32,000 bases of DNA from an uncultured Chloroflexia bacterium (lineage in GTDB: Bacteria > Chloroflexota > Ktedonobacteria > Ktedonobacterales > JADMIN01), in the NCBI GenBank assembly GCA_963718915.1, contig CAVRAI010000004.1, positions 870,001 through 902,000 on the forward strand, read 5' to 3'. Under the pieces are notes generated by a model. It was not told the DNA's origin. It was given only the letters and a program-made list of their open reading frames with translations, and did not search any database. This document shows positions 7,250-31,440 of the stretch, piece after piece; the stretch's first letter is position 1; each line of letters begins with the position of its first letter. The translations under genes and the position numbers were made by a program.

Positions 7250-7328
7250 GCGGCGACAGCCTGCTGATGGTCTGTCGCGTTCATCTGGCGGTAGTATCAG
7301 TCGAGACGAAATAGTCAAGAACGGTCGC

Positions 7329-8918: not shown

Positions 8919-9280
8919 GCGACATGCATGCTGCGAGCGCCATCTCGTTCGCAGCCGGACCGCAGAGAATGCGCATACGCTGAAGGCGTCGGGCCTGGTA
9001 TGGTATGCTACAGGGCGAATAACATTGCACAGCTTGAGAGGATCATCCCGGCGATGGGCGTAAATCAGGCCCTACATCGCGCGTCGAAGCATCAGGGTCG
9101 GTTCGTCGAACCCGGATCACTTCAGACAAAGGCAGAGGTATGCTGGAACAGCTGCCCATCGCATGGCAGGGCAAAACGCGAAGACCAGTACCCGCGAATC
9201 AGCGCGGCGCTCTGCGTCTTGTTGCTCAATTGGCGGCGCCATTGGCCAGTGTCGTCTCCAAGTGGGAGAGTGACGACGTG

Positions 9281-11514: not shown

Positions 11515-11599
11515 TCGTTCTCTCGTTGAGTCTGCACTGCCTTGACTTGTCGATTTATAATGTAAATGCACGACTTTCAATGTAGCTTGTTAAGAGGAA

Positions 11600-12187: not shown

Positions 12188-12240
12188 AGCACAATTTATA
12201 TGGGTCGTTTGCCCTGTGTAGCTCCGCCTAGACAGCACCT

Positions 12241-15200: not shown

Positions 15201-16014
15201 CATAGCCTGCCTGGTATCGTCCGATATCCGTCCCACCACGCATGATGGTTTCGAGGTTGTCGAGAATGATGAGGCACTTGCGCTGATGCAGGTATGAGAA
15301 CAACACTTCCAGGAGTTCATCTACTGACTCGGGAAGGTCAACCTCTTGCTGATCGGAGACGAAGACAATGAGTTGTCGCAAGATATCATCGAGGGTGGGA
15401 GCGCCAATGAGTGTCCGCCAGATGACGTAATCGAAGCGCTGAGACAGTTGCTGTCCAGACACTGCATCCTGGCTGCCTCTTGCGAAGGTAACGGTAAGAT
15501 TTGTTTTTCCAATCCCGCGCATCCCGATTGTTGCCACCACACGACAACGGTCGTCGACAATCAGTTGTTTCAGCGCTGCCAGTTCTTCTCCACGGCTGAA
15601 GAGCAGTGACGCCGTTGGCGCACCGCCCCAATCGTGGTGCTTGATCTCCGCATGATCGGTATCCGCCTCATCTGCTATGCCAAACTCAGGGGCTCCGGTG
15701 ACTGCTCCGCCAGTCAGCTTGCGCTTTTTTCCACCAGATTTAAGCGCCCTCCATGCCATTTCAACCTGATCACGTTCCTCATCGGAAAGTAGGAGTGCAT
15801 CAATCAGTCTGCTTATTGTATCGTAGCGCGGCGCTTTGTTCACGCCGCGCTCGAGATCGCTAATGGTGGTCTCCGCGACATTCGACGCGAGGGCCAAATC
15901 CTTCTGCTTCAGCCCTATCCGCGTTCGGCGCGTGCGAATTAATTCGCCGAGTGTCAGATCAAGAGTGGACGCGCCTTGATGTCCAGGTGGTGTTCCATGG
16001 TGATTGATGGGCAT
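12241..16014 (-). CDS. STAND NTPase: XRE-type HTH + NB-ARC/AP-ATPase + pentapeptide repeats + about 15 WD40 repeats
   Basis: The HTH is LGELIRTRRTRIGLKQKDLALASNVAETTISDLERG. The P-loop is VVATIGMRGIGKTNL (about 15500-15530) and Walker B is CLIILDNLE. The NB-ARC-type signature HQSCLLLTSREKP is present. Seven pentads run RDFSL LSIRQ AYLRE SSLVD VNFAD ASFEQ SVFTD. About 15 units of GH..V.SVAFSPDG..LASGS.D.T.RLWD follow, then the tail LYEGMNIRGITGLNDAQKITLMALGA. Confidence 0.9.
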   Translation of the reverse strand: MPINHHGTPPGHQGASTLDLTLGELIRTRRTRIGLKQKDLALASNVAETTISDLERGVNKAPRYDTISRLIDALLLSDEERDQVEMAWRALKSGGKKRKLTGGAVTGAPEFGIADEADTDHAEIKHHDWGGAPTASLLFSRGEELAALKQLIVDDRCRVVATIGMRGIGKTNLTVTFARGSQDAVSGQQLSQRFDYVIWRTLIGAPTLDDILRQLIVFVSDQQEVDLPESVDELLEVLFSYLHQRKCLIILDNLETIMRGGTDIGRYQAGYEDYGKLLRQFAGLPHQSCLLLTSREKPEEIAQMETKSGPLRTQLLSGIDVAGCKAIFERIDDSFKGEEEDWKQLTQQYEGSPLALDLAARHILAAYGGNISAFLRNENRLFKDLDKLLRWYFQRFSDLQKEILYWLAIMREPVSLDELKGVLISPKSRQELPSTLQTLQQALPLQRVGEAFTLQPVLIEYMSARLIEQIAAEITDERIGLLNSHAVMLALAKDYIRDVHRRVFLDPILQTLKGSIGLTACERNLGGLTKQLQQQPMTLPGYAAGNILNLMIHLGIDLSGRDFSLLSIRQAYLRESSLVDVNFADASFEQSVFTDMFGNVLSVAFSNDPFETAVIAAGTGTGEIRLWRASDGMPLATYTGHTDWVWGLDYSPDCRLLASGSSDCTIRLWDTSSGRHLYILRGHTKRIRSVAFSPDGKVLASAGEDNRIGLWDIGSGELIGFIEGHTHPVREVAFTPDGKTLVSCSDDSTVRVWDVADRAEKLPPLVGHNRPVWSLAVSPDGCVIASGGDDTHIFLWDTASGKHIKTLQGHSGWICSLTFSPDGAFLASASADSHIRIWSMTTCETTRVLQGHGNWVNSVRYHRDGAVLASGSHDQTVRLWDTASGNRMTTLQGYNNGIRAVSFSPGGNQLATADRSVRLWNPVSGTIEAVLSGHRTYIRALAYSPNDNFIVSGSDDNTSCAWTLPSGRKLRLLSGHSNRVKSVAVSPNGSLIVTGSDDNTVRLWDVETPLARVLEGHTNRIRAVAFSPTGLLVGSGSDDSTARLWDVQSAEVVHILKGHLHRIWSIAFSPDGSLFATGSEDTTVGIWSAETGECLHVLRGHTHPVWAIAFRQDGALLASSSEDGTIRLWDTATGACSHLLNGHTKPTWALAFSPDQLRLASGSHDHTVRIWNSYTGQNLATLTGHQDSVWVVAFNPTGTLLASGSDDGACKVWDVNNKKLAHSLRSARLYEGMNIRGITGLNDAQKITLMALGAIDE
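12340..14230 (-). repeat. Tandem coding repeats of about 126 nt (WD40 blades) inside the STAND gene
   Basis: Reading the protein gives about 15 consecutive WD40 units. They also generate the run of long antisense ORFs on the plus strand in the ORF track. Confidence 0.85.
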
Positions 16015-16612
16015 CGCGACCCCCGATTTTCATGGTCTGGATGAGAGGAATATTACCAATAGTAGCACACACGCTCCCTAACTATTAGCGTTATCCTGCA
16101 CTCCAAAGTGATTATATCAGTCATCGGCTTCAAGTCACGGGGCGTAAAAATGGCAGTGTCTGGGGGAAAGTGTAATTTTTTCGACTTGCTTGGATTGCCA
16201 AAGTTGGAAGTAAACCGGCTTTATCCCCAGGATTATTTTCAATGCTGACAGTACACTTCTCTTGTCAGTTTGAGCGTCCTGTCTCGCAGGACGAGGCGCG
16301 CAGTCGTGCTGTGTGTCTCATCAATGGCCACCGTTGCCATGTTTAACAGAGGCAGGTCGCTCAGTTACGCACGGTTCCAGTTTTTTAGAGTAGTTGGAGG
16401 TACCAATGGTATTCAACCGCGATCCCCCTTTCCCTCCGCTGCGCACTGTGCCCGCTTCGCGCATAGGGAAAGAGCAACGAAGGTCTAAGGTGTTCGAAGT
16501 CTCACCTGCGTAACCTTAGACCCCGCTCGAAAAAGCATCTCAAAACAGCCAGCCCGGTTGGACTGGTATAGCCGATCACGCTCGCCAGAGCTATGAATTG
16601 GAGACACTTTCA

Positions 16613-16840
16613 ATGACCAGTGTACACGCCTCAGCCACCATCGTGCAACAGATGCGAAAGGTTATCGTCGGCGCCTTGATTACCTTTTGTTTGCTTGGAG
16701 CGCTACTGTGGATCAATTCCACGAATACCTTCCAGGTTGCAAGCGAACATCCGTCGAATCAACTGACGCCAGTCCAGGTTGCCCCTTTGTTGGACTCAAC
16801 CCCGAATGCGAAGTGCGGTGGTATTGTAGCGCCGTGCTGA
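16613..16840 (+). CDS. Small (75 aa) single-TM protein, unassigned
   Basis: ATG 16613 lies 9 nt after GGAG (the track ORF starts at TTG 16598). The N-terminus is MTSVHASATIVQQMRK, followed by the TM VIVGALITFCLLGALLW, and the protein ends ...NAKCGGIVAPC. Support is only the ORF, the RBS and the TM logic. Confidence 0.4.
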   Translation: MTSVHASATIVQQMRKVIVGALITFCLLGALLWINSTNTFQVASEHPSNQLTPVQVAPLLDSTPNAKCGGIVAPC

Positions 16841-17014
16841 GCCAGGGCGCCCTGTAACTGCGCTCGTTAGATGTGTCAATACTTCCGAGTCAATTGAGCC
16901 AAATGGCTTCTGGCTTGGAAGTATTGAATTTTGTGTGCTTCTGAACCATACTTACCTTGTTTTTACCTTGTCTCCGCTGAGGCTCTCTCTCGTGCTACCA
17001 TATTTTGGAGCAAT

Positions 17015-18175
17015 ATGCCTTTGGAGGTCTTCCCAATGTTCGATTGCTCTCTTGATTATCCAGATCAACTCTGGTGGCACGACGAAGATAACTATAATCC
17101 TAACGTGGGTATTCTCCTCTATCAGGCCGATATTGAGATCAGAAAGCGCGATCATAGCGCCGAGGCATATCGGCATGCAATGAGGATTATTAAAGGCTGG
17201 CGCGATGAGAAGATGTCGCTTCGCCAGCGCATGCGCATCTATTATTTGATCGCTCGTGCTGATGATGCTATCGGAATGACTAGCAAGGGGATAGAATCGG
17301 TTGATCAAGCGCTATCCCTTGCCTTTGAACTAAAAAGCCACTTCGATGTGAGCAAGTTGCTGTATCATCGCGCCAGGATGAACCGCTCAGAATTATTCCT
17401 TGCCCGTGCCGCCGAAGACGCTCGCGACTGCATGATGATCATTGATGAGCACGCATATCACCTCGTTGTTGAAAACGTCTCCTCTGCTCGGCTGCAACTT
17501 CTTCCGCAGCTTGCCACGTACGAATTCTACTTGAGCGATTTCAAGGCGGCGAAGGCGCACATCTCTGCGGCGCGGAAACTTATTGCGCGCACGCCAGATG
17601 CAAGTCTGCCAGCAGCGGCTACGGCGTGGGTCCAGGTGAATATGGATATTCTCAAACGCCGTCCTGGACTGGCGCTAGCCCCATCACTCCAGATTTCCGA
17701 GATTTACGCGCTCAAGGGCAATCCACTTTCATACGAGCGCGCGGAAATTCTTGCTGCACAGGCAGCATTGGCGTTTGCGGAATCCCTGCCTGTGGGCACG
17801 TATCGCGATTTGGCCATCGAGATGGCGCTTCCACATATCGCTAACGCGGAGCATCTGGCCGAGACATTACATGACCGTCCTGGTCAAGCTCTCTGCCAAC
17901 TTGAGCGAGCGCACTTTGATCGCCTGGCCAACCGCAATAGCGGAAGAAAAAGTATGATTCTGGGTGTGATACAGTTCGCGGATGACATCGACGATGTCGC
18001 CGTTTTGGCCCAGGCACACGTCATGCTTGGCGATGAATTCACTGCCTTAGGTGAATTTGAACTGGCAAATGGGTGTTACCGAGCCACGCTAGATCTGTTG
18101 CGCGACACCGAGATACCGGCACTGGGAATACCGGCACGTCGTGTGCTGGACGAACAGGATGAATTCCAGTTATGA
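17015..18175 (+). CDS. Hypothetical all-helical (TPR-like?) repeat protein
   Basis: The ORF spans 16931-18175. ATG 17015 with GGAG 5 nt upstream is the preferred start. The sequence is rich in amphipathic helical stretches (AEAYRHAMRIIKGW, RMRIYYLIARADDAIG, FELANGCYRATLDLL). I recognise no catalytic motif. Confidence 0.6.
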   Translation: MPLEVFPMFDCSLDYPDQLWWHDEDNYNPNVGILLYQADIEIRKRDHSAEAYRHAMRIIKGWRDEKMSLRQRMRIYYLIARADDAIGMTSKGIESVDQALSLAFELKSHFDVSKLLYHRARMNRSELFLARAAEDARDCMMIIDEHAYHLVVENVSSARLQLLPQLATYEFYLSDFKAAKAHISAARKLIARTPDASLPAAATAWVQVNMDILKRRPGLALAPSLQISEIYALKGNPLSYERAEILAAQAALAFAESLPVGTYRDLAIEMALPHIANAEHLAETLHDRPGQALCQLERAHFDRLANRNSGRKSMILGVIQFADDIDDVAVLAQAHVMLGDEFTALGEFELANGCYRATLDLLRDTEIPALGIPARRVLDEQDEFQL

Positions 18176-18208
18176 GGCCCTTGTCTTCTTCAGAAGGGCG
18201 CGCGCTTT

Positions 18209-20593
18209 ATGTCTGATTCAACATTTGTACCGAGGCGCGAATGGCGACACATTTCAACCAGGGGGCGCTTTACGGTGGAGGCGGTAGCCGATGACATCCT
18301 GCGTGTCGCGTTTACGCCCGCGAACGCACAGCCACACCGTAGCTGGTCGCTTGCCCCTTCTGCAATGGCTCTGCCTGACGCGGACGTTACGATAGATGAC
18401 CAGGGAGATCACGCCAGTCTGCGCACGAATGCGCTTCAAGTGGCATTGACCGTGCCAGATGGAGAAGAGTCGCTGCAACTGGTCATCAGTCGACAGGATG
18501 GCAGTGTTGTGCTGGCGCGCGCCATAATCGGCCTGGTCTCCACCGGGCGTCCCGTCTGGACCGCGGCGCTCGCGGAAGGCGAAGTGATTTATGGCGGTGG
18601 CGAGCGCACTGGCCCGTTGAATAAGCGTGGCCGGAGTATGACCTTTTGGACCACTGACCCACTCCCCAATCATGGCGATCAGACCGGTGCGATGCATCAG
18701 TCTGTTCCGTTTCTTATTGGCCTGGTGGACGGCAAAGCCTATGGTGTCTTTTTCGATGTCAATGAGCGTGCCGAGGCCGATATTGGCAAGGCTCAAATTG
18801 ATGTCCTGACCTACGCGCCAGAATCCGCCGAACTGGTAGCCTATGTTGTCGCTGGCCCTACACTGGGTGATGTGCTGCGGCAATACACCTCACTCACTGG
18901 ACGGATGCCGTTGCTGCCGCGCTGGGCGTTCGGCAATCAGCAGTCGCGGTGGAGCTATATGTCTGCCGACGAAGTGCTCTCAATCGCCAGTGAATTCCGC
19001 GAGCAGGGGATCCCGTGTGACGCCATCTATCTCGACATTGACTACATGGACGGATACCGCGTCTTTACCTGGAATCCCGATCGTTTCTCTAATCCCGCTG
19101 GCCTGATTGAGACCTTACGCGAGCGGCACCTGCGTCTCGTGACGATCATTGATCCCGGCGTCAAAGTCGATGCTGAGTATGCGGTCTACCAGGTAGGTGA
19201 ATCCGAGGGTTACTTTGCGCGTGCGGCAGACGGCGCGCTTTTCCAGGGGTGGGTCTGGCCCGGGCTGAGCTGCTGGGGTGACTTTGCCCAGCCTGAGGTG
19301 CGATCATGGTGGGGCGATCAGCACCGCGGCTTCGTCGATGCGGGTGTGGCGGGAATCTGGATCGATATGAACGAACCCGCGCAGGCGGGAATCTTTGCGC
19401 CACCCAGCGTCACGATTTCCCACGGCGAGACGTTGCCGGACGATGTGATGCACGGCACGCCAGATGATCCCATCACCCATGCACGATTCCACAACGCCTA
19501 TGGACTGGCGATGGCGCAGGCCACTTTTGAGGGCTTGCGGCGATTGCGGCCCGACGAGCGGCCATTTGTGTTGACGCGCGCCGCCACTGCAGGCTCACAG
19601 CGTTACGCGATTGTCTGGAACGGCGATTCGACCAGCAGTTGGGATAATCTGCGTTTGGCGATTCCGCTCAACCTCGGCGTCGGGCTGTCCGGCTTCCCGA
19701 TGACCGGAGGCGATGTTGGTGGATTCTGGCAAAACACTACCGCAGAGTTGTTAGTGCGCTGGACGCAATTGGGAGCACTGCTGCCATTCTGTCGCAATCA
19801 TAGCGCGATGGGCACCGCGCGACAGGAGCCCTGGGCATTTGGCGAGCCATATACGCGCATGTGCCGCGAAGCCATCGAGCGGCGATACCAGCTTCTGCCG
19901 TATCTGCTCGCGCTGGCTCACGAGGCCGCGTTGACTGGCGCTCCGATGGTGCGTCCGCTCTCATGGATCACTCCGACCCATGCCGAAAGTCTTGCCTGTG
20001 ACGATGAGTTTTTGCTGGGCGATGGGCTGCTGGTCGCGCCCGTGCTGGACGAAGGCGCAACATCGCGCGAGGTGTTGTTGCCACCGGGCGAGTGGTTCGC
20101 ATGGGAGAGCAGTGCGTTGCATGCTGGCGACCAGCGACTCTCGGCGCCCGTCACGCTTGATACTTTGCCTCTCTATGTGCGCGCGGGAACGATTCTGCCG
20201 CTGGCAGCGGTCGCGCAATCCACCGATGGCATGACTGAGCAACCGTTGACGCTTCATGTGTATCTTTCGGCGAACAGCCCGACAGCGGTGGCGGAAATGT
20301 GGCTGGATGACGATCATCCATTGGCCGAGGAGCGCGGTACATTCGGAATCTGGCGGGCGCGGGCAACCTGGCAGGAGGACGATCTGACCGTGCGGCTGGA
20401 GCGCGTCAGTGGGCGGCTTGCATGGCCTTACCCTGGTTGTTCCATTGCGCTACATTTGCCTGATGGATGGACCGCCACATCGCTCGATAGTACGGTTGAC
20501 TGCAAGGCGATACATTCACCGCGCGCTATCGTGTCGCGCACGAGTGAACTGTTAAGGGTGGCGCTCGGTCGTTCGTGTATCTTCGCCCTGTAG
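18209..20593 (+). CDS. Glycoside hydrolase family 31 alpha-glucosidase
   Basis: The GH31 nucleophile region GIWIDMNEP is present, together with VWNGDSTSSW, the acid/base region GGDVGGF and FCRNHS. The size is 794 aa. Confidence 0.9.
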   Translation: MSDSTFVPRREWRHISTRGRFTVEAVADDILRVAFTPANAQPHRSWSLAPSAMALPDADVTIDDQGDHASLRTNALQVALTVPDGEESLQLVISRQDGSVVLARAIIGLVSTGRPVWTAALAEGEVIYGGGERTGPLNKRGRSMTFWTTDPLPNHGDQTGAMHQSVPFLIGLVDGKAYGVFFDVNERAEADIGKAQIDVLTYAPESAELVAYVVAGPTLGDVLRQYTSLTGRMPLLPRWAFGNQQSRWSYMSADEVLSIASEFREQGIPCDAIYLDIDYMDGYRVFTWNPDRFSNPAGLIETLRERHLRLVTIIDPGVKVDAEYAVYQVGESEGYFARAADGALFQGWVWPGLSCWGDFAQPEVRSWWGDQHRGFVDAGVAGIWIDMNEPAQAGIFAPPSVTISHGETLPDDVMHGTPDDPITHARFHNAYGLAMAQATFEGLRRLRPDERPFVLTRAATAGSQRYAIVWNGDSTSSWDNLRLAIPLNLGVGLSGFPMTGGDVGGFWQNTTAELLVRWTQLGALLPFCRNHSAMGTARQEPWAFGEPYTRMCREAIERRYQLLPYLLALAHEAALTGAPMVRPLSWITPTHAESLACDDEFLLGDGLLVAPVLDEGATSREVLLPPGEWFAWESSALHAGDQRLSAPVTLDTLPLYVRAGTILPLAAVAQSTDGMTEQPLTLHVYLSANSPTAVAEMWLDDDHPLAEERGTFGIWRARATWQEDDLTVRLERVSGRLAWPYPGCSIALHLPDGWTATSLDSTVDCKAIHSPRAIVSRTSELLRVALGRSCIFAL

Positions 20594-21779
20594 CCAGAGC
20601 GAGACGTGCGCTGGATGCATCGTCGTCTCAACGGTTTCCAGCAGGCTGCTGGTGAGGTGTGTCAGCTCGACCTCGCTCCGTAGCGATGCGCCGAACTTGT
20701 CGAGCAGTTTGCGCGCATCATAGCGGCTGCGATAAAAGCGCCGGTCGATGAACCGCTGCATGCGTTGGCGTAGCGGTTGGAAAAGTGCGGCAACGAGCAG
20801 CGTTGTGATGACAATCAAGATGGGCGACTGCTGCTCATGCTGGCCGGTCAGCGCATTGATGAGCGCTTGCGCCCCGACAACGCCGACGAAGTAAACACCC
20901 ACCAGTACAGCGGTCAGTGAGCCATAGACCAGCGTCCGATTGATGAGTACGTCGATGTCGAAGAGACGATAGCGCAGAATCGAGATACCCGTAGCGCCCG
21001 CGATGGCGACAAGCGGAACATAAAAGACATAGCTGCTCACGTTGCCATTGAGGGCAAAGATGACGACGACGAGAAACAGGATGAAGATAATGCAGAGAAT
21101 GGCCGCATAGCCGAGCCACTTTATCTGCTGGCGCTCCATACCGCTCGCACGCCTGGCTCGGACAATGAGTGAGACGCCACAGCATATCGATGCCACGAAC
21201 AGCAAAACCGTCAGCAACGTCGAAATGTTGTCGCTCACCGTGCTGTCGATGAGCTGGATCGGATTCTTTAGAACTGGGGAGAGTTGTGTCTCATTCGCGA
21301 TGTGGCCAAAGAGCATGTCAAGAGTGACCCCTGCCAGCAAAATGGTCGTGATAACGAAGAGTGGTCGCCAGCGCGGAGATGGCAGGTGGCCAGTCGGGAA
21401 CAGTAGCAGCACGTAGGTGAAAATGAGGAGGAATCCCAGAGATTGCGCGGCGGTCCCAATCACGCCGAGTAAATTGGCCGCTGGCAGCGTCCCGGGTTGT
21501 GTGATTAACCCATGCGTGGCGTATGCGAGCGAGAAACTACTCAAGGCCCAGATGAGCGCCGACGCGCAGAATAAGGTTCCAATGCGCGTTCTCTGGCCGA
21601 CGCACAGCGATCATCACACCTACCAGGGCAAAACCAGCCAGCGCCAGCGACTGAAACACAATGCCTGGAATCGCTGCTGGCGAGGTATCAAGCACGGTGA
21701 GGACGTCGCCGGCAATCGAGAGCGCCACGACGAAAATCAGTGCGAATACCGCGAACACGCGAACAAGCCGAATCTTCAC
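20552..21779 (-). pseudogene. Polytopic (about 10 TM) membrane protein, paralogue 1, interrupted by one extra base (or an assembly indel)
   Basis: The track ORFs 21537-21779 (80 aa, GTG start) and 20552-21544 (330 aa) lie in adjacent frames. Removing one base near 21585-21588 (GAG AAC g CGC ATT) gives ...IAVRRPEN-RIGTLFCASALIWALSSFSLAY. This aligns with paralogue 2 ...ISRRPDNTVGWIFCAIGLGTATTSFSASF. The C-terminus is RYRLFDIDVLINRTLVYG...RFYRSRYDARK...MHPAHVSLWL. Confidence 0.65.
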
Positions 21780-23030
21780 GATGATCGTTCCCTTTCGGCT
21801 GCACGCAGCCAGAGCGAGACATGCGCAGGGTGCATTGTCTGCTCTACGGTCTCCAGCAAGTGATCGGTCAGGTGGTCCAACTCGATCTGACTCCGCAGCG
21901 ATGCGCCGAACTTGTCGAGCGTCTTCTTCGCGTCATAGCGCGAGCGATAGAACCGCCGATCGATGAACTGCTGGAAGCGGCGGCGCAACGGCTGAAAGAG
22001 CGCGGCGATCAGCAGGGTCGTGACAACAATCAGCACCGGCGATTGCGACCCCTGTATGCCAGACAGCGCGCGGCCAGAGAGCACGTTGACCAACGATTGC
22101 ACGCCGACCACGCCGAGGAAATAGACGCCTGCCAGCACAGCCGTCAGCAAGCCATAGACCAGCGTTCGGTTGATGATGACGTCGATATCGAAGAGGCGAT
22201 AGCGCAAGACGCCAATGCCAGCACCGATGGGGAGCATCACGATACCCAGCGCGAAGGTGACATTGCTGAGCGCGTTCTCATTCGGGATGATGATGATGGA
22301 TGGGACCAGAATGGCAACCATCGCCGCTACACCCAGTGCGAACCACTTTATCTGCTGGCGCTGGATGTCTCGCGACTTCACATAGCGTGTGATAATCGCC
22401 GCTACAGAAGCGAGTGCGCAGAAAATGAACAGTAGTCCGCCAGCGTTGGTGACCGCATTGAGCACTGGGCCTGCTCCGTCGATGCCGAGCGGGTTCCAGA
22501 TGCGATTAGGTGGACCGGACTGTCCCGGAGTCGATTCCTGATAGCCAGGTGTGATTATGGCGGTGAGCACAGACAGCGCAATCAAGACAACATCGAGCCA
22601 GAAGACAAATCGCCAGCGCGGTGATGGTAGACGCCCTGTCGGGAAAGAGGAAGAGCAGCAGTGTACCCATTCCCAGGTTTATTGGCCAGACAGTATTACC
22701 CAGTATTTCAACTAGTCCCACGATGAGCTGGGTATCTGTGTGATTCGCGAGGGCATGCTGCACGAAAGACGCGCTGAACGAGGTGGTTGCCGTGCCGAGG
22801 CCAATGGCGCAGAAGATCCATCCGACCGTGTTATCCGGCCTACGCGAGATGATGAGCGCTCCCATGGTGGGAAATGCAAAGAACGCCGCGACCATCGAAA
22901 ATGTTCCCAGGAACGCATTATTCTCGTTGCTTCCCGGCGTCTGAGTGAACAGGACGATGGCCGCGACAATCACGATCAAATCAAGCAGCCAGAGAATCCA
23001 TCCGAGGTGTCGCACAATGCGATGGGACAT
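21776..23030 (-). pseudogene. Polytopic (about 10 TM) membrane protein, paralogue 2, interrupted by one extra base (or an assembly indel)
   Basis: The track ORFs 22506-23030 (174 aa, GGGAG RBS) and 21776-22585 (269 aa) lie in adjacent frames. Reading CTC TTT C CCG ACA GGG CGT near 22640-22643 gives LFPTGRLPSPRWRFVFWLDVVLIALSVLTAIITPGY. This matches paralogue 1 LFPTGHLPSPRWRPLFVITTILLAG. The stop overlaps the paralogue 1 start (GTGA). Confidence 0.65.
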
Positions 23031-24594
23031 TACAGTTCTCCCGCTGCTGTTCGCGCCCTTCCGGCTGGGGTAACAGTGGTAACCTCGCTGACGTCAGTAA
23101 CTGGCGCTTACGTCTGGCAGTATCAGGAGACGAAGAACCGTTCCCAACGCCAAGCAGTCCCAGCGCCGACTGCGCCGCAAAGTAGCCGCACAGTCCATGC
23201 ACGCCACCACCTGGTGGTGTGGATGAAGAGCAGATGTACAGACCGCTCACTGGCGTCGAGTACGGATCAACACGCACCGTGGGACGAGTAAATAGCTGGC
23301 GTAGATCCTGCACCCCACCGTTGATGTCGCCGCCGACGTAGTTGGCATTGTAGGCCTCGAGCTCCGTGGTATTGAACGAGTGACGCGCGAGGATGCGGTC
23401 GCGGAAGCCAGGGGCGAAGCGCTCGATCTGCGCTTCGATACGCGCGGTCATATCCACTGTGCAGCCATGGGGCACGTGGCAGTATGCCCAGGCGGTATGC
23501 TTGCCGCTTGGCGCCCGCGTCTCGTCGAAGAGGCTTTGCTGAGCCAGCAGCACGAATGGCAACTCAGGCAGCACACCTCGCCACACGCTCCGCTCGCCCG
23601 ACGCGATCTCCTCTGGAGTCCCGCCAACGTGAACCGTGCCCGCACGCAAACACTCCACAGCCCGCCAGGGGATTGGCCCATCGAGGGCGAAGTCCACCTT
23701 GAAGACACCTGGCCCATAGCGGTAGCGTTGCAACTGGCGGCGATAGCTTGCGGGCAGTGTGTCGCCAGCGAGCGCGAGCAGCTGGCGTGGCGTCACATCA
23801 CAGAGAATGGCGCGCGCCTGGGGCAATTCGGCGAGCGAGCGAATTTCGGTGTTCGTTACGATCTCGCCGCCGAGGTCGCGCAGGTATGCCGCAAGGGCAT
23901 CCACGATGCGCTGTGAGCCACCTTTGGGCATCGGCCAGCCAACCGCGTGACCCAGCCCTCCCAGCACCAAACCCGCGGCCGCAGTCAATGGTTGCTCCAT
24001 GGGCATCATCGAGTGGGCCGACATGCCCATGAACATCGCGCGAGCATAGTTCCCTTTGAAGACGCGCTCGGCAAGGCCACGCGCCGACTGCACCGCATTG
24101 AAGCCGAACTGTGCCATTGCGACTGACGTGATCGGGTGAGCCGCCTGCCAGAGCGGACGGAGCGGCGCAAGAATACCCTCGGCAAGGGAGTCCCAGCGGC
24201 GCGCAAGTGGTGCGAATAGCCGCCGCCAGGCGTCAGCATCGGGGCCAAGCGTTGCGCCCGTTGCCTCAAACGAGCGTTCCAGCAAGGCAGCGCCGCCATC
24301 TGGCAGCGGGTGCGCCAGCGGCGCGTCGGGGTGGATCCACTCGACGCCATACTGCTCGAGTGGCAGTGTGCGGAAGAACGGCGAACCGACCGCCAGCGGA
24401 TGAATTGCCGAGCAAACATCGTGGATATAGCCGGGCAGGGTCAGCTCTTTCGACCGACAGCCACCGCCGATGATGTCACTGGCCTCGAAGACGGCGACCG
24501 AATGCCCGGCGCGGGCGAGCGTAATAGCCGCCGCCAGCCCGTTCGGCCCAGCGCCAACCACCACAGCATCATACATTGACGAATGAGACGACAT
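22981..24594 (-). CDS. FAD/NAD(P)-binding oxidoreductase of the phytoene-desaturase-related (CrtI-like, COG1233-type) family
   Basis: The N-terminal Rossmann motif is YDAVVVGAGPNGLAAAITLARAGHSVAVFEA. The C-terminal region ...YICSSSTPPGGGVHGLCGYFAAQSAL is typical of this family. A non-conserved-looking tail of about 60 aa overlaps the next gene start by 50 nt. Confidence 0.85.
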   Translation of the reverse strand: MSSHSSMYDAVVVGAGPNGLAAAITLARAGHSVAVFEASDIIGGGCRSKELTLPGYIHDVCSAIHPLAVGSPFFRTLPLEQYGVEWIHPDAPLAHPLPDGGAALLERSFEATGATLGPDADAWRRLFAPLARRWDSLAEGILAPLRPLWQAAHPITSVAMAQFGFNAVQSARGLAERVFKGNYARAMFMGMSAHSMMPMEQPLTAAAGLVLGGLGHAVGWPMPKGGSQRIVDALAAYLRDLGGEIVTNTEIRSLAELPQARAILCDVTPRQLLALAGDTLPASYRRQLQRYRYGPGVFKVDFALDGPIPWRAVECLRAGTVHVGGTPEEIASGERSVWRGVLPELPFVLLAQQSLFDETRAPSGKHTAWAYCHVPHGCTVDMTARIEAQIERFAPGFRDRILARHSFNTTELEAYNANYVGGDINGGVQDLRQLFTRPTVRVDPYSTPVSGLYICSSSTPPGGGVHGLCGYFAAQSALGLLGVGNGSSSPDTARRKRQLLTSARLPLLPQPEGREQQRENCNVPSHCATPRMDSLAA

Positions 24595-24636
24595 GGAGTA
24601 TCCAGCTTCCTCGTTTTTCTTCGATGATGGGTTGGC

Positions 24637-25398
24637 TCACCTGGTCTGTGCTTTGCGCTTGCGACCCCGACCGAACCAGCGGGCAGGGGTGTTCAGCGCC
24701 GTCCGCACAGCGGCGTTCTGCCAGATATTGCGGGCGTTTGACCACTGTCGGCGGCGGTCAACACAGACCATCTGTAACGTCACCGGGCCATCAGCGTTGA
24801 AGTAAGCCGCTACACCGTGGAGCGTATGTCGCCAGAACTTGTCTTCCTGCTTATGGCCACCCATCGCCAGCCCTAGCTCGTAAATGGGATCATTTGCCCG
24901 CATCAGTACCTGAGCCTGAACGATTGGGCAGTTCCCTTCCATGAAGGACGAGAAGGTAATCCAGCCGGCAAACATGTGGCCTTCTGGCGTCATGAGTGTG
25001 AATGACTCATCATCCGCATACAGCACCAGCACACCAGTTGAGAGGGGCATCCCGCCTGTCTTGATATTGAGCAGCGCGACCTCTCCCGGAGCGATACCGG
25101 TGATCGGGCCGTAGAAGTGATTCCCTTTCGGCCAGAATGCGGCAAAATGGTCCTTCCACGTCTGAATAACCTCAGTCGGTGTCACCATGGCGCTTTCCAA
25201 CCGGATGCGATAGGTCTTCTGCCACATCTTGCCGAAGCCCTGTAGCGGGCTAACCACCCGCCGACCTTCGACATTCAGGTTGATAGCGTGGTCTGGAGCC
25301 TCGGAGACGCGCAAATCTGTTCCCCGCTGTGCCCAATTGGCGGCGTCACGCGGTTGCCCTCCGGTCGCACCCGGTGTTGGTGTCGCTGGATTATCCAC
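24637..25398 (-). CDS. Unassigned soluble protein X (253 aa), paralogue of 25481-26230
   Basis: The gene has a GTG start. It shares long identical blocks with its neighbour (HAINLNVEGRRVVSPLQGFG, LYADDESFT.MTPEG). No TM, signal peptide or catalytic motif that I recognise is present. The C-terminus is basic (GRGRKRKAQTR). Confidence 0.75.
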   Translation of the reverse strand: MDNPATPTPGATGGQPRDAANWAQRGTDLRVSEAPDHAINLNVEGRRVVSPLQGFGKMWQKTYRIRLESAMVTPTEVIQTWKDHFAAFWPKGNHFYGPITGIAPGEVALLNIKTGGMPLSTGVLVLYADDESFTLMTPEGHMFAGWITFSSFMEGNCPIVQAQVLMRANDPIYELGLAMGGHKQEDKFWRHTLHGVAAYFNADGPVTLQMVCVDRRRQWSNARNIWQNAAVRTALNTPARWFGRGRKRKAQTR

Positions 25399-25480
25399 TG
25401 GTGTTCTCTTTCAACTCTGCACTTGCATATGAACTACTTTTCGATACGGCACGCGCTAGGAGACTTTGTCCGTCTTTCCG

Positions 25481-26230
25481 CTACGCGCGCCGTCCGATGG
25501 CTCGTACCGGACGGAGACAAGCGTAAAAAAACGAACGGATGGTGGCATTTTTCCAGACATTGCCCGTACGACCCCATTGGAAGCGCGGATCCAGACAGGT
25601 CCGCTCAATCACTGCGTCAGTCTGCACGTTATAGTTCGCCGCCAGATGGGTTAGCACATACGACCAGATACGCTCCTGCTGTCGTGCGCCGAACATGCGG
25701 AACCCAACCTCGAAGATCGGGTCGTTTGAACGTCCCTGGGTTTGTACCTGTGCGACCGTGAAGTTATCGTCTGCGAACGCGCTACATGTAATCCACCCTG
25801 CCTCGGGGCAACCCTCAGGAGTCATGAACGTGAATGACTCGTCATCGGCATAGAGGATGAGCAGACCTGAATGCACCGGTAAGCCCTGGGCTGAGGCATT
25901 CAACAACACGACTTCGCCTGGCGTGACGCCAGAGCGTGGAGCATAGAAGCGGTTTTCTCGCGGCTGCAACTCGCCGAAATGGTCTTTCCAGAAGCGCACC
26001 AACTCCAGGGGCGAGACGATGTCACCAGGCACGCGCACCTTGTAGGTCTTCTGCCATAGCGGTCCAAAGCCCTGTAATGGGCTGACGACACGGCGGCCTT
26101 CAACATTGAGATTGATCGCATGCTCTGGGGTATCAGTGACGTGCAGATCGGTGCCTCGCTGAGCCCAATAAGCCATGTCACGTGGCTGCGCTTGGGGCGT
26201 TCCCGTTGTTTGTGGCTCTAGATTGTCCAT
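25481..26230 (-). CDS. Unassigned soluble protein X' (249 aa), paralogue of 24637-25398
   Basis: ATG 26230 has GAGGGG 9 nt upstream. By eye about half the residues are identical to X. It has the same length and the same conserved blocks. Confidence 0.75.
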   Translation of the reverse strand: MDNLEPQTTGTPQAQPRDMAYWAQRGTDLHVTDTPEHAINLNVEGRRVVSPLQGFGPLWQKTYKVRVPGDIVSPLELVRFWKDHFGELQPRENRFYAPRSGVTPGEVVLLNASAQGLPVHSGLLILYADDESFTFMTPEGCPEAGWITCSAFADDNFTVAQVQTQGRSNDPIFEVGFRMFGARQQERIWSYVLTHLAANYNVQTDAVIERTCLDPRFQWGRTGNVWKNATIRSFFYACLRPVRAIGRRA

Positions 26231-26277
26231 CGCTAATTCCCCTCGCTCTTCCGCTGTCGCCCATCTTTCTGGGGCAG

Positions 26278-26646
26278 TCAGGAAGCGCCTGACGCCGCGT
26301 TGACCGCCTCGGCCTCTGTCTCGAAGATGCTGATAGCCTCGTTCAGTCGTGTCAGCTCGAAGATATGCTTGTAATGGTCACTCAAGCCGTAAGCAAACAT
26401 GTGCTGCCGGTGCCGGTTCATGCGGATCAAGAGCGTGACCAGCAGGCCGATGCCGCTACTGTTCATGTACTCCAGCCCGGTGAAATTCAGGATGATCGTC
26501 TTGGTCGTATTGGTGCTGGCGGCTGTGTAGGCGTTTGTCAGTACAGTTTCGGCAAATGCCGTGACTTCGCCCTCGATGTCAATGATGCTCACTGTTGGAT
26601 TCACGTAGCGGACATGCACAGTCACGCTCGGGTCCTGTGTCGCCAT
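26278..26646 (-). CDS. STAS-domain protein (anti-sigma-factor antagonist, SpoIIAA/RsbV-like), copy 2
   Basis: The 122-aa protein contains IILNFTGLEYMNSSGIGLLVTLL, with the phosphorylatable Ser position conserved. ATG lies 2 nt after the stop of copy 1, and GGAGGGG lies inside the end of copy 1. Confidence 0.85.
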   Translation of the reverse strand: MATQDPSVTVHVRYVNPTVSIIDIEGEVTAFAETVLTNAYTAASTNTTKTIILNFTGLEYMNSSGIGLLVTLLIRMNRHRQHMFAYGLSDHYKHIFELTRLNEAISIFETEAEAVNAASGAS

Positions 26647-26648
26647 GC

Positions 26649-27020
26649 TTATTTCCCCTCCGTCGCAATGGCCGGGTCGGCGAGAGCGCTCGCTTCGTCC
26701 GGAAACACACTCATGAAATCAGCGAGTCGCGTGATGTTGAAGATTTCGACGTAATGCTCACTCAAGCCGCACGAATACAGATGGACGTGGGATTTGCGCG
26801 CCTTCGCCAGCAGTGTGACGATCAGGGCGATGCCGGTGCTGTTGATATAGTCTACGTTGGCGAAATTGAGCAGAATGACCTCAGGCTGTTCCGTCTCTGC
26901 CTCGGCGTAGGCGGTGTTGAGCGTCTCTTCCGCGAATCCATTGATCTCGCCATGCAGATCAATCACAGCAACTCGCGGCTTTTTGTGACGCACATACGCC
27001 TCAAGCGCTCTGGTTGGCAT
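26649..27020 (-). CDS. STAS-domain protein (anti-sigma-factor antagonist, SpoIIAA/RsbV-like), copy 1
   Basis: The 123-aa protein contains ILLNFANVDYINSTGIALIVTLL. A strong GGAGGAGG RBS precedes it. The start overlaps the end of the upstream phosphatase/kinase gene by 20 nt. Confidence 0.85.
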   Translation of the reverse strand: MPTRALEAYVRHKKPRVAVIDLHGEINGFAEETLNTAYAEAETEQPEVILLNFANVDYINSTGIALIVTLLAKARKSHVHLYSCGLSEHYVEIFNITRLADFMSVFPDEASALADPAIATEGK

Positions 27021-28638
27021 CGTCTTCCTCCTCCCGGGACATAATCAATTCAACGGTGTGATGGCGCTCATCGCTGGTAACACGCAGTTCATCCACCAGA
27101 TTGCGAATCAGGAACAGCCCCCATCCGCGCGGTGTCTGCTCCTCAGCCAGTTTCGCCTCCAGGTCGGGCGTCTGTGACTGCGTGGGCACGGGCTGGCCGC
27201 CTCCGGAATCGCGTATGCGGACGGCCACCTGGCGTGCGGAAGACAGCACTGTCACCTCCACAGGCACATCCTCCTGGTATTGATTGCCGTGCTCCATGGC
27301 GTTCATCGTCGCCTCGGCAACGGCTGTCTTGAGGCGCTCAATGCGCTTCTCTGGCAGCCCAAGCTCGCGTATCGTAGCCTCGACATGACGCATCGCATCG
27401 CGTTCGTTGCCGGGAGCGCTTGGGATGGGCCAGGTATCGAGCACGCGCCACCCTTCGTCTACCGTGTGGTTAGCGTCAGCACGATCGTTCATATGGCCAT
27501 CTCCTGTATGCTGAAGTGTGACCAGCGTTACGTCGTCTTCCTGCTCCCAGCCAATCCCGGTGAAGGCGCGCAATTCGTTGAGCAGGTATTCAATCAATGC
27601 ACCGGTATCGCCATATTGCCCGACGAGCGACATTAATCGAGGGAAGCTGAACATATCCCGCTCGGGATTGTGCGCCTCGACCAGACCGTCACTATAGAGC
27701 AGCAACGTGTCACCCGCAGCCACATGCATCTCCTTCTCTTCGTAATGCATATCTGGCATCAAGCCGAGCGGCATGCCGGTAGCGCGCAGTTCTGACGCGG
27801 CTCCGTTGTGCGAAACGTAAGGCAGGTCGTGTCCCGCGTTCGCATATTGCAGGCGCCCGGTGGCGGGATCGAGAATCGCGTAGAGGCATGTCACGAACAT
27901 CTTGGGAGGAATATCGGGGCAGAGCAGGTTGTTGGCGCGCTCTAACACTTCGCCCGGAGAGTCGCCGTGCTGTGCGGCGGTGCGCAGCATGCTACGAGTA
28001 GTCGCCATCACCAGCGCGGCGGGAACGCCTTTGTCGGTGACATCGCCAATGACCAGCCCCAGACGGCCATCGTCGAACTGAAGGAAGTCATAAAAGTCGC
28101 CGCCGACGGCGCGGGCCGGTTGATAGTATGCGCCGAATTGCCAGCCTTCGAGTTGCGGCAATTCCTGAGGCAGTAGTGTCTGCTGGATGATACGGGCGAT
28201 GCGCAATTCCTGCTCGGTACGCTCGCGGGTGCGGGCCTCGGCCTGTTGTTCGCGTACCAGTTGCGCGACCCGCACGGCTGGCGCGGCTTGCGTCGCCAGG
28301 GTATTGAGCAGCCCACGGTCATCGGGCGAGTAGTCCTGCTCGCTGAGCCGCGGGCCAAGGTTGAGCAGGCCGACCAGCTCGCCCTGACTGACGAGCGGAA
28401 TCGCCAGCGTAACACCTGCCGAGCGTAAAGCTTGCAGTGCGGGCGAATCGAGATGTAGTTTTTCCACCTCAACCGCTCCAGGCGCACTCAGAAAGTAGGC
28501 CACGATGGGGTCATCGGGCGCAATGTCTATCGGCGGCGCTACCTGCCTCAGACGCTCCGCTGGTTTGCGGCTTTCCACAGTCTCGCTCGTTTTGCGAACC
28601 GGCCAGATTCGTTTCATGCTTTGCAGCAGTGTTGCCAT
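27001..28638 (-). CDS. Fusion protein: GAF-like N-terminus + PP2C/SpoIIE-type phosphatase + RsbW/SpoIIAB-like GHKL (HATPase) kinase domain
   Basis: The GAF-like region is LAIPLVSQGELVGLLNLGPR. SpoIIE/PP2C motifs are IARIIQQTLLP, ARAVGGDFYDF, GDVTDKGVPAALVMA and LLLYSDGLVEA. The C-terminal GHKL N-box is EATMNAMEHGN, G1 is RIRDSGGG and G2 is RGWGLFLIRNL. The track ORF runs to 28755, but ATG 28638 preceded by GGGAGG is the preferred start. Confidence 0.9.
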   Translation of the reverse strand: MATLLQSMKRIWPVRKTSETVESRKPAERLRQVAPPIDIAPDDPIVAYFLSAPGAVEVEKLHLDSPALQALRSAGVTLAIPLVSQGELVGLLNLGPRLSEQDYSPDDRGLLNTLATQAAPAVRVAQLVREQQAEARTRERTEQELRIARIIQQTLLPQELPQLEGWQFGAYYQPARAVGGDFYDFLQFDDGRLGLVIGDVTDKGVPAALVMATTRSMLRTAAQHGDSPGEVLERANNLLCPDIPPKMFVTCLYAILDPATGRLQYANAGHDLPYVSHNGAASELRATGMPLGLMPDMHYEEKEMHVAAGDTLLLYSDGLVEAHNPERDMFSFPRLMSLVGQYGDTGALIEYLLNELRAFTGIGWEQEDDVTLVTLQHTGDGHMNDRADANHTVDEGWRVLDTWPIPSAPGNERDAMRHVEATIRELGLPEKRIERLKTAVAEATMNAMEHGNQYQEDVPVEVTVLSSARQVAVRIRDSGGGQPVPTQSQTPDLEAKLAEEQTPRGWGLFLIRNLVDELRVTSDERHHTVELIMSREEEDDANQSA

Positions 28639-29302
28639 TCTATCAGCCTCCCTCACGAGGTTCCCCAGCCATGCCTTACGCCCAGAGCATACGCGACCGC
28701 CGTTCCCAAACGTTACAGGAATCGTTACGGAATGTGTGTAATACGTGTCCCGCAAAGATATCGTGAAGTATCCCGCATTGTACTATGTTGTGTAACGATT
28801 GAAACACAAGACTGGACGCACGCGACTGTTCGTGGTACACTGAGTCACACACGCAAAGATGCGGCACTCTCCAGAGTTAGTTGCTGAGAGGGAGGCCAGA
28901 TATGCGACCGGTCGTCCGGGTTCGAGCAGATCACACAAGCGTCTCTCTGCGTGTGCGGGAGAATGAAACGTACAAGGCGCCAGGGGAATAGACCTCTGGC
29001 GCCTTCGCTATTGCTGGGACCAATAGTGATAAGCCATCCAACAAAAGTTCGCATTTGTGGACCACGGTCCGATTCGTAGAGCAAAACAGTATACAGATGC
29101 GTAGTGTGTGAACCACCGGGCGTCGTGGCCTGGAGGAGCCATCAGACGGCCAACAGTCAAGCGCTATGTAACCGGAATCCACCAGCAACGAGATCGGTGT
29201 GAGTTTTTTTGCCTGATTCAGTGAACCGCAGGGATGTTCCAGCACTGGTAGTCTGGTAGCGAGCCAGTGTCAGGCGAAGGCACACGAAAGAGGGTAGAGC
29301 CT

Positions 29303-30262: not shown

Positions 30263-30531
30263 TCCCTGTACCCCTCTGTATGGCTGTCATCCCTTAGTTA
30301 TTCGCCTGTGGCGCCTGCCGCGATTCCCTCGCAGTCTCGCACACACACATTCTAAGTCAGTATAACCCAGACATCCAGGCCACGCAAGCAGTACCGCCCT
30401 CATGTCATGCCTGCATTCCCAGGCATCATGGTACACTTACGACTGTGCAACTTGCACGTCTGTTCGAGACGGCGTATGGACACGGACAAGCGACGACCAG
30501 TCTGAGACAAACGCGAAAGGACGAACCGGCA

Positions 30532-31041
30532 ATGGGGCTGACACACTTCGACGAATCGGGGCGCGCGCGTATGGTTGATGTCAGCGCGAAGGCCGATACT
30601 GCGCGGGAGGCCACCGCTGCTGGGGTCGTACGCATGCGGTCGGAGACACTCGCGCAGATTCGCCAGGGATCTATCGCGAAGGGTGACGTACTGGCGGTGG
30701 CACAGGTGGCTGGGGTCATGGCAGCCAAGCAGACTCCGCAGATGATTCCAATGTGCCATACCTTGCTGCTGACTGGCGTTGATCTTACATTTGCGCTGGA
30801 AGATGGCGATGCAGGCGAGGGGCGTGTATCCATATCGGCGACGGTGCGCACGGTCGGCAAAACGGGCGCGGAGATGGAGGCTCTAGCGGCGGTGAGTGTC
30901 GCCGCACTGACGATCTACGACATGTGCAAGGCGATAGATCGCGCGATGGTGGTTGATACGGTGCGCCTGATGCACAAGAGTGGTGGCAAGAGCGGCGATT
31001 ACGTGCGTGAAGATGAAGGTGCGGGTTCAGGCCAGCCATAA
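30532..31041 (+). CDS. moaC: Cyclic pyranopterin monophosphate synthase MoaC (molybdenum cofactor biosynthesis)
   Basis: [29 protein letters not shown]...[36 protein letters not shown] is the canonical MoaC core. ATG 30532 (MGLTHFD) is preferred over the track start at 30445. Confidence 0.9.
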
Positions 31042-31440
31042 GCCGAATTCTGTTCCGCGGACGCCTTACGGCAGCCACGGCGACAATCATCTCTCTAGGA
31101 CGACGGTTACCCATCGCCTCAAGCAGCCAACCCGGAGGTAAACGGGCGAGCCACCCGCGAGCAACCGACCTGAGCCGATTGCTGCTCCTCCTGCACGGCC
31201 TTGCTCCAGATGGGGTTTACCTCAGCCGACCAGTCACCTGGCCGCTGGTGAGCTCTTACCTCGCCATTTCACCCTTACCTTGGCAGGAAGCAAGTTCCCG
31301 CCCGGCGGTATGTTTCTGTGGCACTTTCCCTGGGGTTGCCCCCGCTGGCCGTTAGCCAGCATCCTGCTCTGTGGAGTTCGGACTTTCCTCGGCCAGCGCA
31401 TGGATGGCCGCGATTGTCTGTCTGCCCTGAACCCGCGCAC
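31017..31440 (-). ncRNA. rnpB: RNase P RNA, bacterial type A
   Basis: The minus strand reads GUGCGCGGGUUCAGG...CCGAGGAAAGUCCGAACUCCACAGAGCAGGAUGCUGGCUAACGGCCAGCGGGGGCAACCCCAGGGAAAGUGCCACAGAAACAUACCGCC...CAAGGUAAGGGUGAAAUGGCGAGGUAAGAGCUCACC...GGUAAACCCCAUCUGGAGCAAGGCC...GGUUGGCUGCUUGAGG...ACAGAAUUCGGCUUAUGGCUGGCCUGAACCCGC. This is block-for-block collinear with E. coli M1 RNA. The 11-bp P1 pairs GCGGGUUCAGG (31436-31426) with CCUGAACCCGC (31031-21). The ends are approximate to within 5 nt. Confidence 0.9.

Follow-up and report, generated by a model that had tools for sequence, protein, structure and literature searches.

What does a partner-switching module switch when no sigma factor is encoded with it? 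Partner switching is the textbook means of controlling sigma factors; to our knowledge the roles of STAS proteins in sigma-less systems are mostly unknown, and the target of SypA is still unidentified. The question is raised by a cluster of genes at positions 20552-28755 of a 32,000-nucleotide (nt) stretch of DNA from an uncultured Chloroflexia bacterium of the Ktedonobacterales (contig CAVRAI010000004.1, positions 870,001 to 902,000; the whole stretch is referred to here as the window). An earlier reading of the letters of the window (the original prediction) described a sigma-less partner-switching cluster made of three paralogue pairs and one enzyme, and suggested a two-channel signalling system with membrane proteins as input and unassigned proteins, X and X', and/or an oxidoreductase as output. 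The region proved to be one conserved operon-like signalling module. We lean slightly towards the view that it is a partner switch whose target is the pair formed by X and the neighboring flavoenzyme, rather than a sigma factor, and that it is fed by the membrane proteins.

In order of transcription, the cluster comprises a GAF-PP2C-kinase enzyme (open reading frame [ORF] 27001-28755, 584 codons, probable start ATG 28638), two single-domain STAS proteins, STAS_a (26649-27020) and STAS_b (26278-26646), the paralogues X' (25481-26230; 249 amino acids [aa]) and X (24637-25398; 253 aa), a flavin adenine dinucleotide (FAD)-dependent oxidoreductase (22981-24594; 537 aa), membrane protein 2 (21776-23030) and membrane protein 1 (20552-21779), all on the minus strand. 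The prediction had counted eight tightly packed genes; six of them are intact, whereas each membrane gene is broken by a frameshift. Likewise, its first five junctions (a 20-nt overlap, a 2-nt gap, and gaps of 47, 82 and 42 nt) were reproduced exactly from the ORF coordinates, and the 50-nt and 4-nt overlaps that it listed beyond them arise only when frameshifts are read through. Annotation with profile hidden Markov models (Pfam and NCBIfam) bore out the earlier domain assignments for the enzyme, both STAS proteins, X/X' and the oxidoreductase. Identities within the paralogue pairs were 42% for the two STAS proteins, 51% for X' and X, and 57% for the membrane proteins over their C-terminal 231 residues. 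A sequence scan of the cluster interior found no promoter-like or terminator-like signal above shuffled background, and Rfam returned nothing informative for the cluster. PADLOC models gave no match across it except a generic desaturase match for the flavoenzyme; an anti-phage defence system was rejected, as no PADLOC system matched, and a stressosome was rejected because the RsbR/RsbS/RsbT-type arrangement is absent.

Conservation of the cluster was assessed by a genome scan with X, which yielded 80 loci from Ktedonobacteria, other Chloroflexota, Thermoleophilia, Rubrobacteria, Kribbella and Pseudonocardiales; ORFs were called at each locus and searched using the window proteins. Upstream neighbors were counted in the 65 loci with at least 3.5 kb of sequence upstream of X, and downstream neighbors in the 66 loci with room. 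A PP2C domain was encoded upstream of X in 61 of the 65, a HATPase domain in 62, at least one STAS protein in 63 and two STAS proteins in 56. The genes invariably run from enzyme through STAS_a, STAS_b and X to flavoenzyme, and since most of the 80 loci, in two phyla, show this order, the arrangement is far beyond chance; the cluster is conserved among many soil bacteria. Between Chloroflexota and Actinomycetota the core proteins share 54-67% identity and the membrane proteins 41-44%. The closest genome found was a Ktedonobacterales metagenome-assembled genome, L001, with 84-88% DNA identity to the window.

The same survey changed the picture of a cluster in which everything downstream of the enzyme comes in twos. 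X is single in 74 of the 80 loci, and a second copy occurs in the other six; the doubling is shared by the closest relatives (L001, L002 and L005). Median identity to X orthologues elsewhere was 47% for X' vs 62-65% for X, and X' is a diverged, lineage-specific paralogue of X. Membrane paralogues numbered 0 to 6 per locus within 10 kb, placed upstream, downstream or on both sides, and the largest array found, in metagenome locus L109 (1-19951), held about ten, five on each side of a core of enzyme-STAS-STAS-X-X-flavoenzyme. These copy numbers vary widely and independently of the STAS pair; the pattern of twos is therefore a local coincidence in all but that pair. Among the three pairs of the window, the STAS pair alone is ancient.

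The enzyme opens with an N-terminal basic segment, followed by an incomplete GAF domain, a helical linker, a PP2C/SpoIIE domain and an RsbW-like HATPase_c_2 domain (Pfam). The SpoIIE/PP2C match (expectation value [E] 1.8e-55) covers model positions 1-191 of 192, and the HATPase_c_2 match, of the RsbW/SpoIIAB type, is full length (E 6.8e-25). The phosphatase carries the motifs GGDFYD, GDVTDKG, NAGH and DDVT, and the kinase an N-box (E..NA..H), DSGGG and GWG. Among 60 orthologues, seven of the eight catalytic motif patterns were kept in 56-60: four of the five PP2C patterns in 59-60, and the N-box, G1 and G2 motifs of the kinase in 56-58. The exception was the PP2C pattern [YF][ST]DG, found in 43. 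Translation most likely begins at ATG 28638 (MATLLQ...), a start common to most orthologues, and not at TTG 28755. Matches to NCBIfam models were partial (anti-sigma F/RsbW and the SiaA/RssB phosphatases), and the kinase domain fell below the equivalog cutoffs, placing it in the RsbW domain family but not as an RsbW orthologue. Pfam detected no Response_reg domain in the enzyme, and thus no kinase-receiver-PP2C architecture of the SypE type. Judged by its motifs, then, the enzyme combines in a single chain, following a GAF sensor domain, a PP2C phosphatase and an RsbW-type serine kinase that are both intact. GAF-PPM phosphatases are regulated through a coiled-coil linker (PMC12143880), and the enzyme has a helix of that kind between its GAF and PP2C domains.

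Both partners of this putative kinase and phosphatase, of 122 and 123 aa, are clear members of their family, with Pfam STAS matches at E 1.6e-13 (STAS_a) and 2.5e-13 (STAS_b) and scores of 54.9 and 56.2, respectively, against the NCBIfam ant_ant_sig cutoff of 53.45. They form two separate orthologous groups, and STAS_a precedes STAS_b in all 66 loci where the order could be scored. As predicted, both window proteins keep the serine of the phospho-acceptor loop (INSTG in STAS_a, MNSSG in STAS_b). The loop was readable as INS[TS]G in 52 of 68 STAS_a proteins and as [ML]NS[SG]G in 72 of 72 STAS_b proteins, so that no STAS_b loop, and no readable STAS_a loop, lacks the serine. With a PP2C domain, an RsbW-like kinase and STAS proteins retaining their serine all encoded together, assignment of the cluster to the partner-switching type was upheld. 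In loci of the Ktedonobacter type the enzyme gene is immediately preceded by one or two further STAS genes in the opposite orientation (L022, L024 and L029 at 6931-7293; also L011, L025, L038 and L049).

X and X' had been left unassigned. Neither protein matched a family in Pfam or NCBIfam, and X had no match among the sequences of the Protein Data Bank (PDB); a DUF1990 match was marginal (E 0.062, in one of 15 X members tested). The family is nevertheless large: more than 7,700 clusters at 90% identity matched, all of them unnamed or "hypothetical" and without a Pfam domain, and 1,310 representatives were obtained at 50% identity. An AlphaFold2 model of X built from a 15-sequence alignment had a mean predicted local distance difference test score (pLDDT) of 59.5, with the core (residues 57-212) mostly at 60-93. 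When this core was searched against the PDB with Foldseek, 55 matches were obtained at E ≤ 1e-3. Those listed were all Bet v 1-like (probability 1.0; template modelling [TM] score 0.55-0.66 on the target) and included Bet v 1/PR-10 proteins, AHSA1-like bacterial proteins, polyketide cyclases and PYL receptors complexed with PP2C. X is thus predicted to adopt the SRPBCC (START/Bet v 1) helix-grip fold while lying outside every described sequence family.

The oxidoreductase matches the Pfam families Amino_oxidase, NAD_binding_8 and DAO. Its NCBIfam scores were far from the cutoffs (62.4 against 238 for crtI_fam; 118.9 against 1000 for CrtO), and its best PDB match, to phytoene dehydrogenase 4dgk (E 9e-8), involves the C-terminal part only. 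By these profiles it belongs to the CrtI/amine-oxidase superfamily without falling within the carotenoid desaturase families. It follows X directly in 55 of the 66 split loci with enough downstream sequence.

Perhaps the most telling evidence on what is switched comes from proteins in which STAS and X are one chain. About fifty of the best 150 representatives of the X family were STAS-X fusions of 340-400 aa, with STAS at the N-terminus and X at the C-terminus, and in most cases their STAS domain scored better against STAS_b than against STAS_a. At least six more of these representatives were triple fusions of 850-900 aa in which a Pyr_redox_2 domain precedes STAS-X. Triple fusions with a domain of the class I disulfide-reductase type and a CrtI-like flavoenzyme next in line include P0147, P0178, P0182 and P0241 and those at L092 484-3144 and L125 8423-11092. 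Six split-type loci have Pyr_redox_2 as a separate gene of the disulfide-reductase type (L065 7857-9311 is one). When metagenomes were scanned with the fused protein, 49 fused loci were recovered, 17 with at least 4 kb upstream and 39 with room downstream. The flavoenzyme followed STAS-X in 39 of 39; a PP2C or HATPase domain, a free STAS protein or a membrane paralogue was encoded in 0 of 17. Because the fused loci keep the flavoenzyme and dispense with the kinase, phosphatase and membrane genes, the minimal unit is STAS-X plus flavoenzyme, and X and the flavoenzyme, from their gene order, form an obligate pair. The original prediction was to fail if X genes normally lack STAS or PP2C neighbors, and on this point the outcome is mixed: X and STAS are adjacent in 63 of 65 split loci, but the fused STAS-X proteins, a large branch, have no PP2C or kinase neighbor.

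The phospho-acceptor column of the fused proteins was also informative. Across the 49 fused proteins this position was occupied by Gly in 23, Ser in 13, Asn in 5, Ile in 4 and Asp in 2. For the most part, then, the serine persists where the locus has a dedicated kinase and phosphatase of its own. From this follows the strongest argument of the analysis, that phosphorylation of STAS_b would control its contact with X, and the covariation seen at the fused loci argues that X and the flavoenzyme, not a sigma factor, are what is switched. The proposal that X and/or the oxidoreductase serve as output is supported by the STAS adjacency, the STAS-X fusions and the constancy of the flavoenzyme partner.

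Genes for PNPOx-like flavin-binding proteins lay near nine of the 49 fused loci, genes for heliorhodopsin (Pfam E 5.5e-93) near five, and genes for DNA photolyase and for the ultraviolet (UV) endonuclease UvdE near three each; examples of such light-, UV- or redox-type neighbors are found at L087 3155-3916, L102 1-601, L090 7511-8410 and L092 5188-5655. In a published survey, carotenoid genes ("phytoene desaturase, amino oxidase") and genes for photolyase and UvdE are noted as flanking some heliorhodopsins (PMC8612252). The neighbor counts are small and come without a background rate; what they suggest is that the pair of X and flavoenzyme may have to do with light, UV or redox processes.

The membrane proteins, predicted to be polytopic, have about 9-10 hydrophobic segments. 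In the window each is split by a 1-nt frameshift, membrane protein 2 into ORFs 22506-23030 and 21776-22585 and membrane protein 1 into ORFs 21537-21779 and 20552-21544. Deletion of one base near 22637-22647 restores a membrane protein 2 of 417 aa that is 77% identical end to end to memA of L001, and deletion of one base near 21584-21585 restores a membrane protein 1 of 408 aa, 90% identical end to end to memB of L001. Both genes are intact in L001, and comparison with it shows one extra base in the membrane protein 1 gene of the window. The frameshifts are limited to these two genes. They represent either real pseudogenes, in which case the input is lost or defective, or two assembly errors; programmed +1 frameshifting was rejected, as there is no likeness to known slippery sites and the L001 ORFs are plainly intact. 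In seven loci of one Ktedonobacterales sub-lineage (L018, L021, L032, L034, L037, L053 and L067), a dual-specificity/tyrosine phosphatase-like gene, CrcB genes and BacA lie upstream of the membrane genes (e.g. L021 3882-4439), a recurrence that probably reflects synteny by descent.

How might such variable proteins communicate with a single enzyme? The most conserved part of the membrane proteins is a cytoplasmic tail, ...LFQPLRRRxQxxIDRRFYRxxYDAxxTLxxFxxxLRxExxLxxLxxxLxxxVxxTMxPxHVSLWLR (in membrane protein 2 it ends ...MHPAHVSLWLR), and nearly all of the 105 membrane proteins listed from the 80 loci terminate 3-35 residues past ...HVSLWL. The enzyme, for its part, matches only positions 57-132 of the 133 in the Pfam GAF model and so does not hold a complete GAF domain in one polypeptide. 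The listed full-length split-type enzymes start about 45 residues before DIAP[DN]DP, without the first GAF helix or strand; they begin with a short amphipathic basic segment, and a few orthologues carry a different N-terminal domain. Against the NCBIfam PrsK model (TIGR02916), the membrane proteins cover positions 126-350 (membrane protein 2, 210-349) and the enzyme 409-470.

Rare natural fusions join the two parts. Three proteins (P0271, P0272 and P0273) among 35 matching a 962-aa fusion carry a related membrane domain and the same tail, followed by GAF-PP2C(-kinase). All three are colinear with the membrane protein and then the enzyme, with no overlap. In the 962-aa protein itself, P0271 (L065 4792-7680), the Pfam GAF match spans model positions 2-130, as compared to 57-132 in the window enzyme. 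A further candidate, P0274 (1,410 aa), was not used as a natural fusion: it consists of two membrane paralogues, a garbled stretch and the enzyme, and is probably a gene-calling read-through over frameshifts. When membrane tails were joined to enzymes in silico, the GAF match was extended, beginning at model position 1, 2 or 6 and running to 132, with a gain of 4-8 bits in each of the four real pairs. The two window pairs went from about 30 to 34-38 bits, the pair of Kribbella locus L041 from 34.3 to 38.4 and that of Chloroflexia locus L027 from 35.0 to 41.4. Control tails, three shuffled and one reversed, left the GAF match unchanged (0 of 4). From the fusions, the PrsK split and the tail joins together, the gene boundary appears to cut the GAF domain after its first strand, and we infer that the halves reassemble in trans. 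The earlier suggestion that the membrane proteins are the input gains from the fusions a link to the enzyme, since in them a related membrane domain is joined directly to GAF-PP2C-kinase.

The mechanism that we propose is as follows. The polytopic membrane proteins would serve as input, their cytoplasmic tail supplying the first helix and strand missing from the GAF domain of the enzyme. Variable membrane sensors would dock on one enzyme and bias it, via the helical linker from GAF to PP2C, to act as phosphatase or as kinase. Unphosphorylated STAS_b would bind X and thereby switch the activity of X and the flavoenzyme on a hydrophobic or redox-active ligand; the kinase domain would phosphorylate STAS_b (and STAS_a), breaking the contact with X, and the PP2C domain would reverse the phosphorylation. 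STAS_a may be the RsbV-like partner of the kinase itself, or a competitor. A broader picture, in which 0 to about ten membrane tails complete a split GAF domain in trans as plug-in sensors, and in which STAS, START protein and flavoenzyme form an undescribed ligand or redox device, possibly linked to light or UV, whose STAS became detached and came under phosphorylation control in Chloroflexota and Actinomycetota, is offered tentatively; as a whole it is possible but doubtful.

Several points weigh against a switch on X and the flavoenzyme fed by membrane proteins. The survey over-represents one branch, since its 80 genome loci are those with the nearest relatives of X, and in 35 of them no membrane paralogue lies inside 10 kb. 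The AlphaFold2 model of X is of moderate quality overall and leaves the conserved N-terminal 56 residues unmodelled. The gains in GAF score from tail joining are modest, the case for a split GAF resting on sequence profiles, and an AlphaFold2 model of the GAF region of the natural fusion (a 267-aa fragment on a six-row alignment) reached a pLDDT of 42, too low for use. The low pLDDT, the loci lacking membrane genes and the two frameshifts in the window would all suit a different account of the membrane genes, in which they are unrelated neighbors or dead genes and the short GAF of the enzyme is self-sufficient, with no complementation in trans. We consider this account unlikely, given that natural fusions exist, that only real tails complete the profile, that the membrane paralogues, divergent elsewhere, are best conserved in their tail and that the genes recur beside the enzyme in two phyla. 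The output could also lie elsewhere. An AfsR/SARP-like regulator of about 1,000 aa (BTAD, AAA_16 and TPR domains), absent from the window, is a neighbor of the cluster in both phyla (39 of the 80 genome loci) and is found in three metagenome loci as well (examples are L011 186-3185, L022 3939-6920, L029 3939-6920 and L006 12309-15443). This regulator may control the operon or may act as a transcriptional output, in which case it would be an additional output or even the real one. X could instead be the input: a ligand-bound START protein that binds and inhibits PP2C or presents its STAS, with the flavoenzyme making or destroying the ligand and the output being, for example, the SARP-like regulator or the STAS proteins acting on some other target. 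This arrangement draws on the recurrence of that regulator, on the PYL1-ABI1 and RCAR3-PP2C complexes among the Foldseek matches to X, on the presence of X and PP2C in one operon and on the STAS-X fusion, which would tether X to the substrate of PP2C. However, with TM scores of about 0.55-0.6 the PYL matches do not surpass those to Bet v 1 proteins in general, and the fused STAS-X proteins and their flavoenzyme occur with no PP2C nearby, so X has a role independent of this phosphatase. By analogy with the plant receptors X as input deserves mention, and we regard it as improbable.

A more conventional explanation is that the kinase domain could bind and sequester a sigma factor encoded elsewhere, X and the flavoenzyme being co-transcribed members of the regulon. 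The partial matches of HATPase_c_2 to anti-sigma F and RsbW models fit this explanation, and mycobacterial systems are known to have remote sigma partners (PMC7693655). No sigma family was found among the recurrent neighbor families of the surveyed loci. The cluster encodes no sigma factor, as originally stated, and the only sigma gene among the scanned ORFs of the window, an extracytoplasmic function (ECF) sigma factor (9140-9871), is translationally coupled to an anti-sigma factor of its own, of the zf-HC2 type (9868-11514). Since the STAS-X fusions also point to X as the STAS partner, a canonical anti-sigma role seems distinctly unlikely. The two-channel reading of the original prediction, with two STAS, two X and two membrane proteins forming parallel lines through one enzyme, had in its favor that all three pairs exist in the window and that X is doubled in its nearest relatives. 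It is contradicted by the copy-number variation of X and the membrane genes beside a constant STAS pair, and the X-X tandem fusion proteins, two of which (P0121 and P0122) were found among the best 150 representatives, suggest an X'/X heterodimer instead; we judge it very improbable. A switch acting on X and the flavoenzyme thus remains the reading that we prefer, if by no great measure.

Comparison with known systems places the cluster beside several partner switches without equating it with any. As in the RsbU/RsbV/RsbW and SpoIIE/SpoIIAA/SpoIIAB modules of Bacillus, there is a PP2C domain, a GHKL serine kinase of HATPase_c_2 type and a STAS protein whose D/N-S-x-G loop contains a phosphorylatable serine; unlike those modules, the cluster has no sigma factor, joins phosphatase and kinase in one chain, has two fixed STAS proteins and includes a START protein and flavoenzyme as obligate members. 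Sigma-independent partner switches are established, among them SypE/SypA (PMC8256260), BtrUVW, a two-STAS system in Chlamydia and an Anabaena phosphatase/STAS system (PMC13555669). SypE of Vibrio fischeri (PMC8256260) also combines an RsbW-like kinase and a PP2C in one protein, and unphosphorylated SypA acts on a non-sigma target, but SypE is a receiver-driven kinase-receiver-PP2C protein, whereas the cluster has GAF-PP2C-kinase, membrane partners, two STAS proteins and a candidate target in X. Mycobacterium tuberculosis Rv1364c (mentioned in PMC12143880) shares the order sensor, PP2C and anti-sigma kinase in one chain; it differs in its PAS sensor, fused STAS and SigF network and has no X, flavoenzyme or membrane partners. 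In the Anabaena HenR/STAS-glycosyltransferase (PMC13555669), Chlamydia RsbV1/RsbV2 and Bordetella BtrUVW systems, STAS phosphorylation regulates a non-sigma target, some with two STAS proteins; the partners are others, and the abstracts and review text consulted mention no SRPBCC protein, CrtI-like flavoenzyme or split GAF. The plant PYR/PYL/RCAR-PP2C abscisic-acid module likewise brings together a START/Bet v 1-fold protein and a PP2C, and PYL-PP2C complexes are among the fold matches of X, but there is no sequence relationship and X also occurs without a PP2C neighbor, so that the resemblance is a lead only. PrsK/HisKA_7TM-type sensor kinases resemble the other end of the system, since the PrsK membrane region and the first part of the GAF behind it are matched by the membrane proteins, and the last part of that GAF by the enzyme; in the cluster, however, the chain is interrupted within the GAF, there are 0 to about ten copies of the membrane part, and the output is a PP2C and a serine kinase, not a histidine kinase. 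In a literature search, neither a partner switch centered on an SRPBCC protein and a CrtI-like flavoenzyme, nor the X family, nor a GAF domain shared between a membrane array and a phosphatase/kinase was found to have been described. That the original prediction could not match the arrangement to a described system is in keeping with this result.

The remainder of the window contains other features. The stretch 11469-18266 has no counterpart in L001 and L002, which are otherwise syntenic, and represents an insertion or deletion difference; it includes genes for a WD40-repeat protein of 1,257 aa (12241-16014) and a 414-aa protein without a Pfam match (16931-18175). The sole Rfam match in the window was a bacterial class A RNase P RNA on the minus strand (31024-31429; 272 bits), which overlaps the end of the MoaC ORF (30445-31041) by 18 nt. 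A Hanks-type Ser/Thr protein kinase is encoded on the minus strand at 2098-3639 (Pkinase E 2.5e-54); nothing links this kinase to the cluster.

What the cluster offers, then, is a concrete candidate for the target of a STAS protein in a sigma-less switch, namely X together with its flavoenzyme, backed by the natural STAS-X fusions and by a serine that is mostly lost where no kinase is encoded. At the same time, a very large family without any Pfam domain gains a predicted fold and a genomic context. Should the split GAF prove real, it would link many sensors to a single enzyme in an unusual manner and might offer a design principle for modular signalling.

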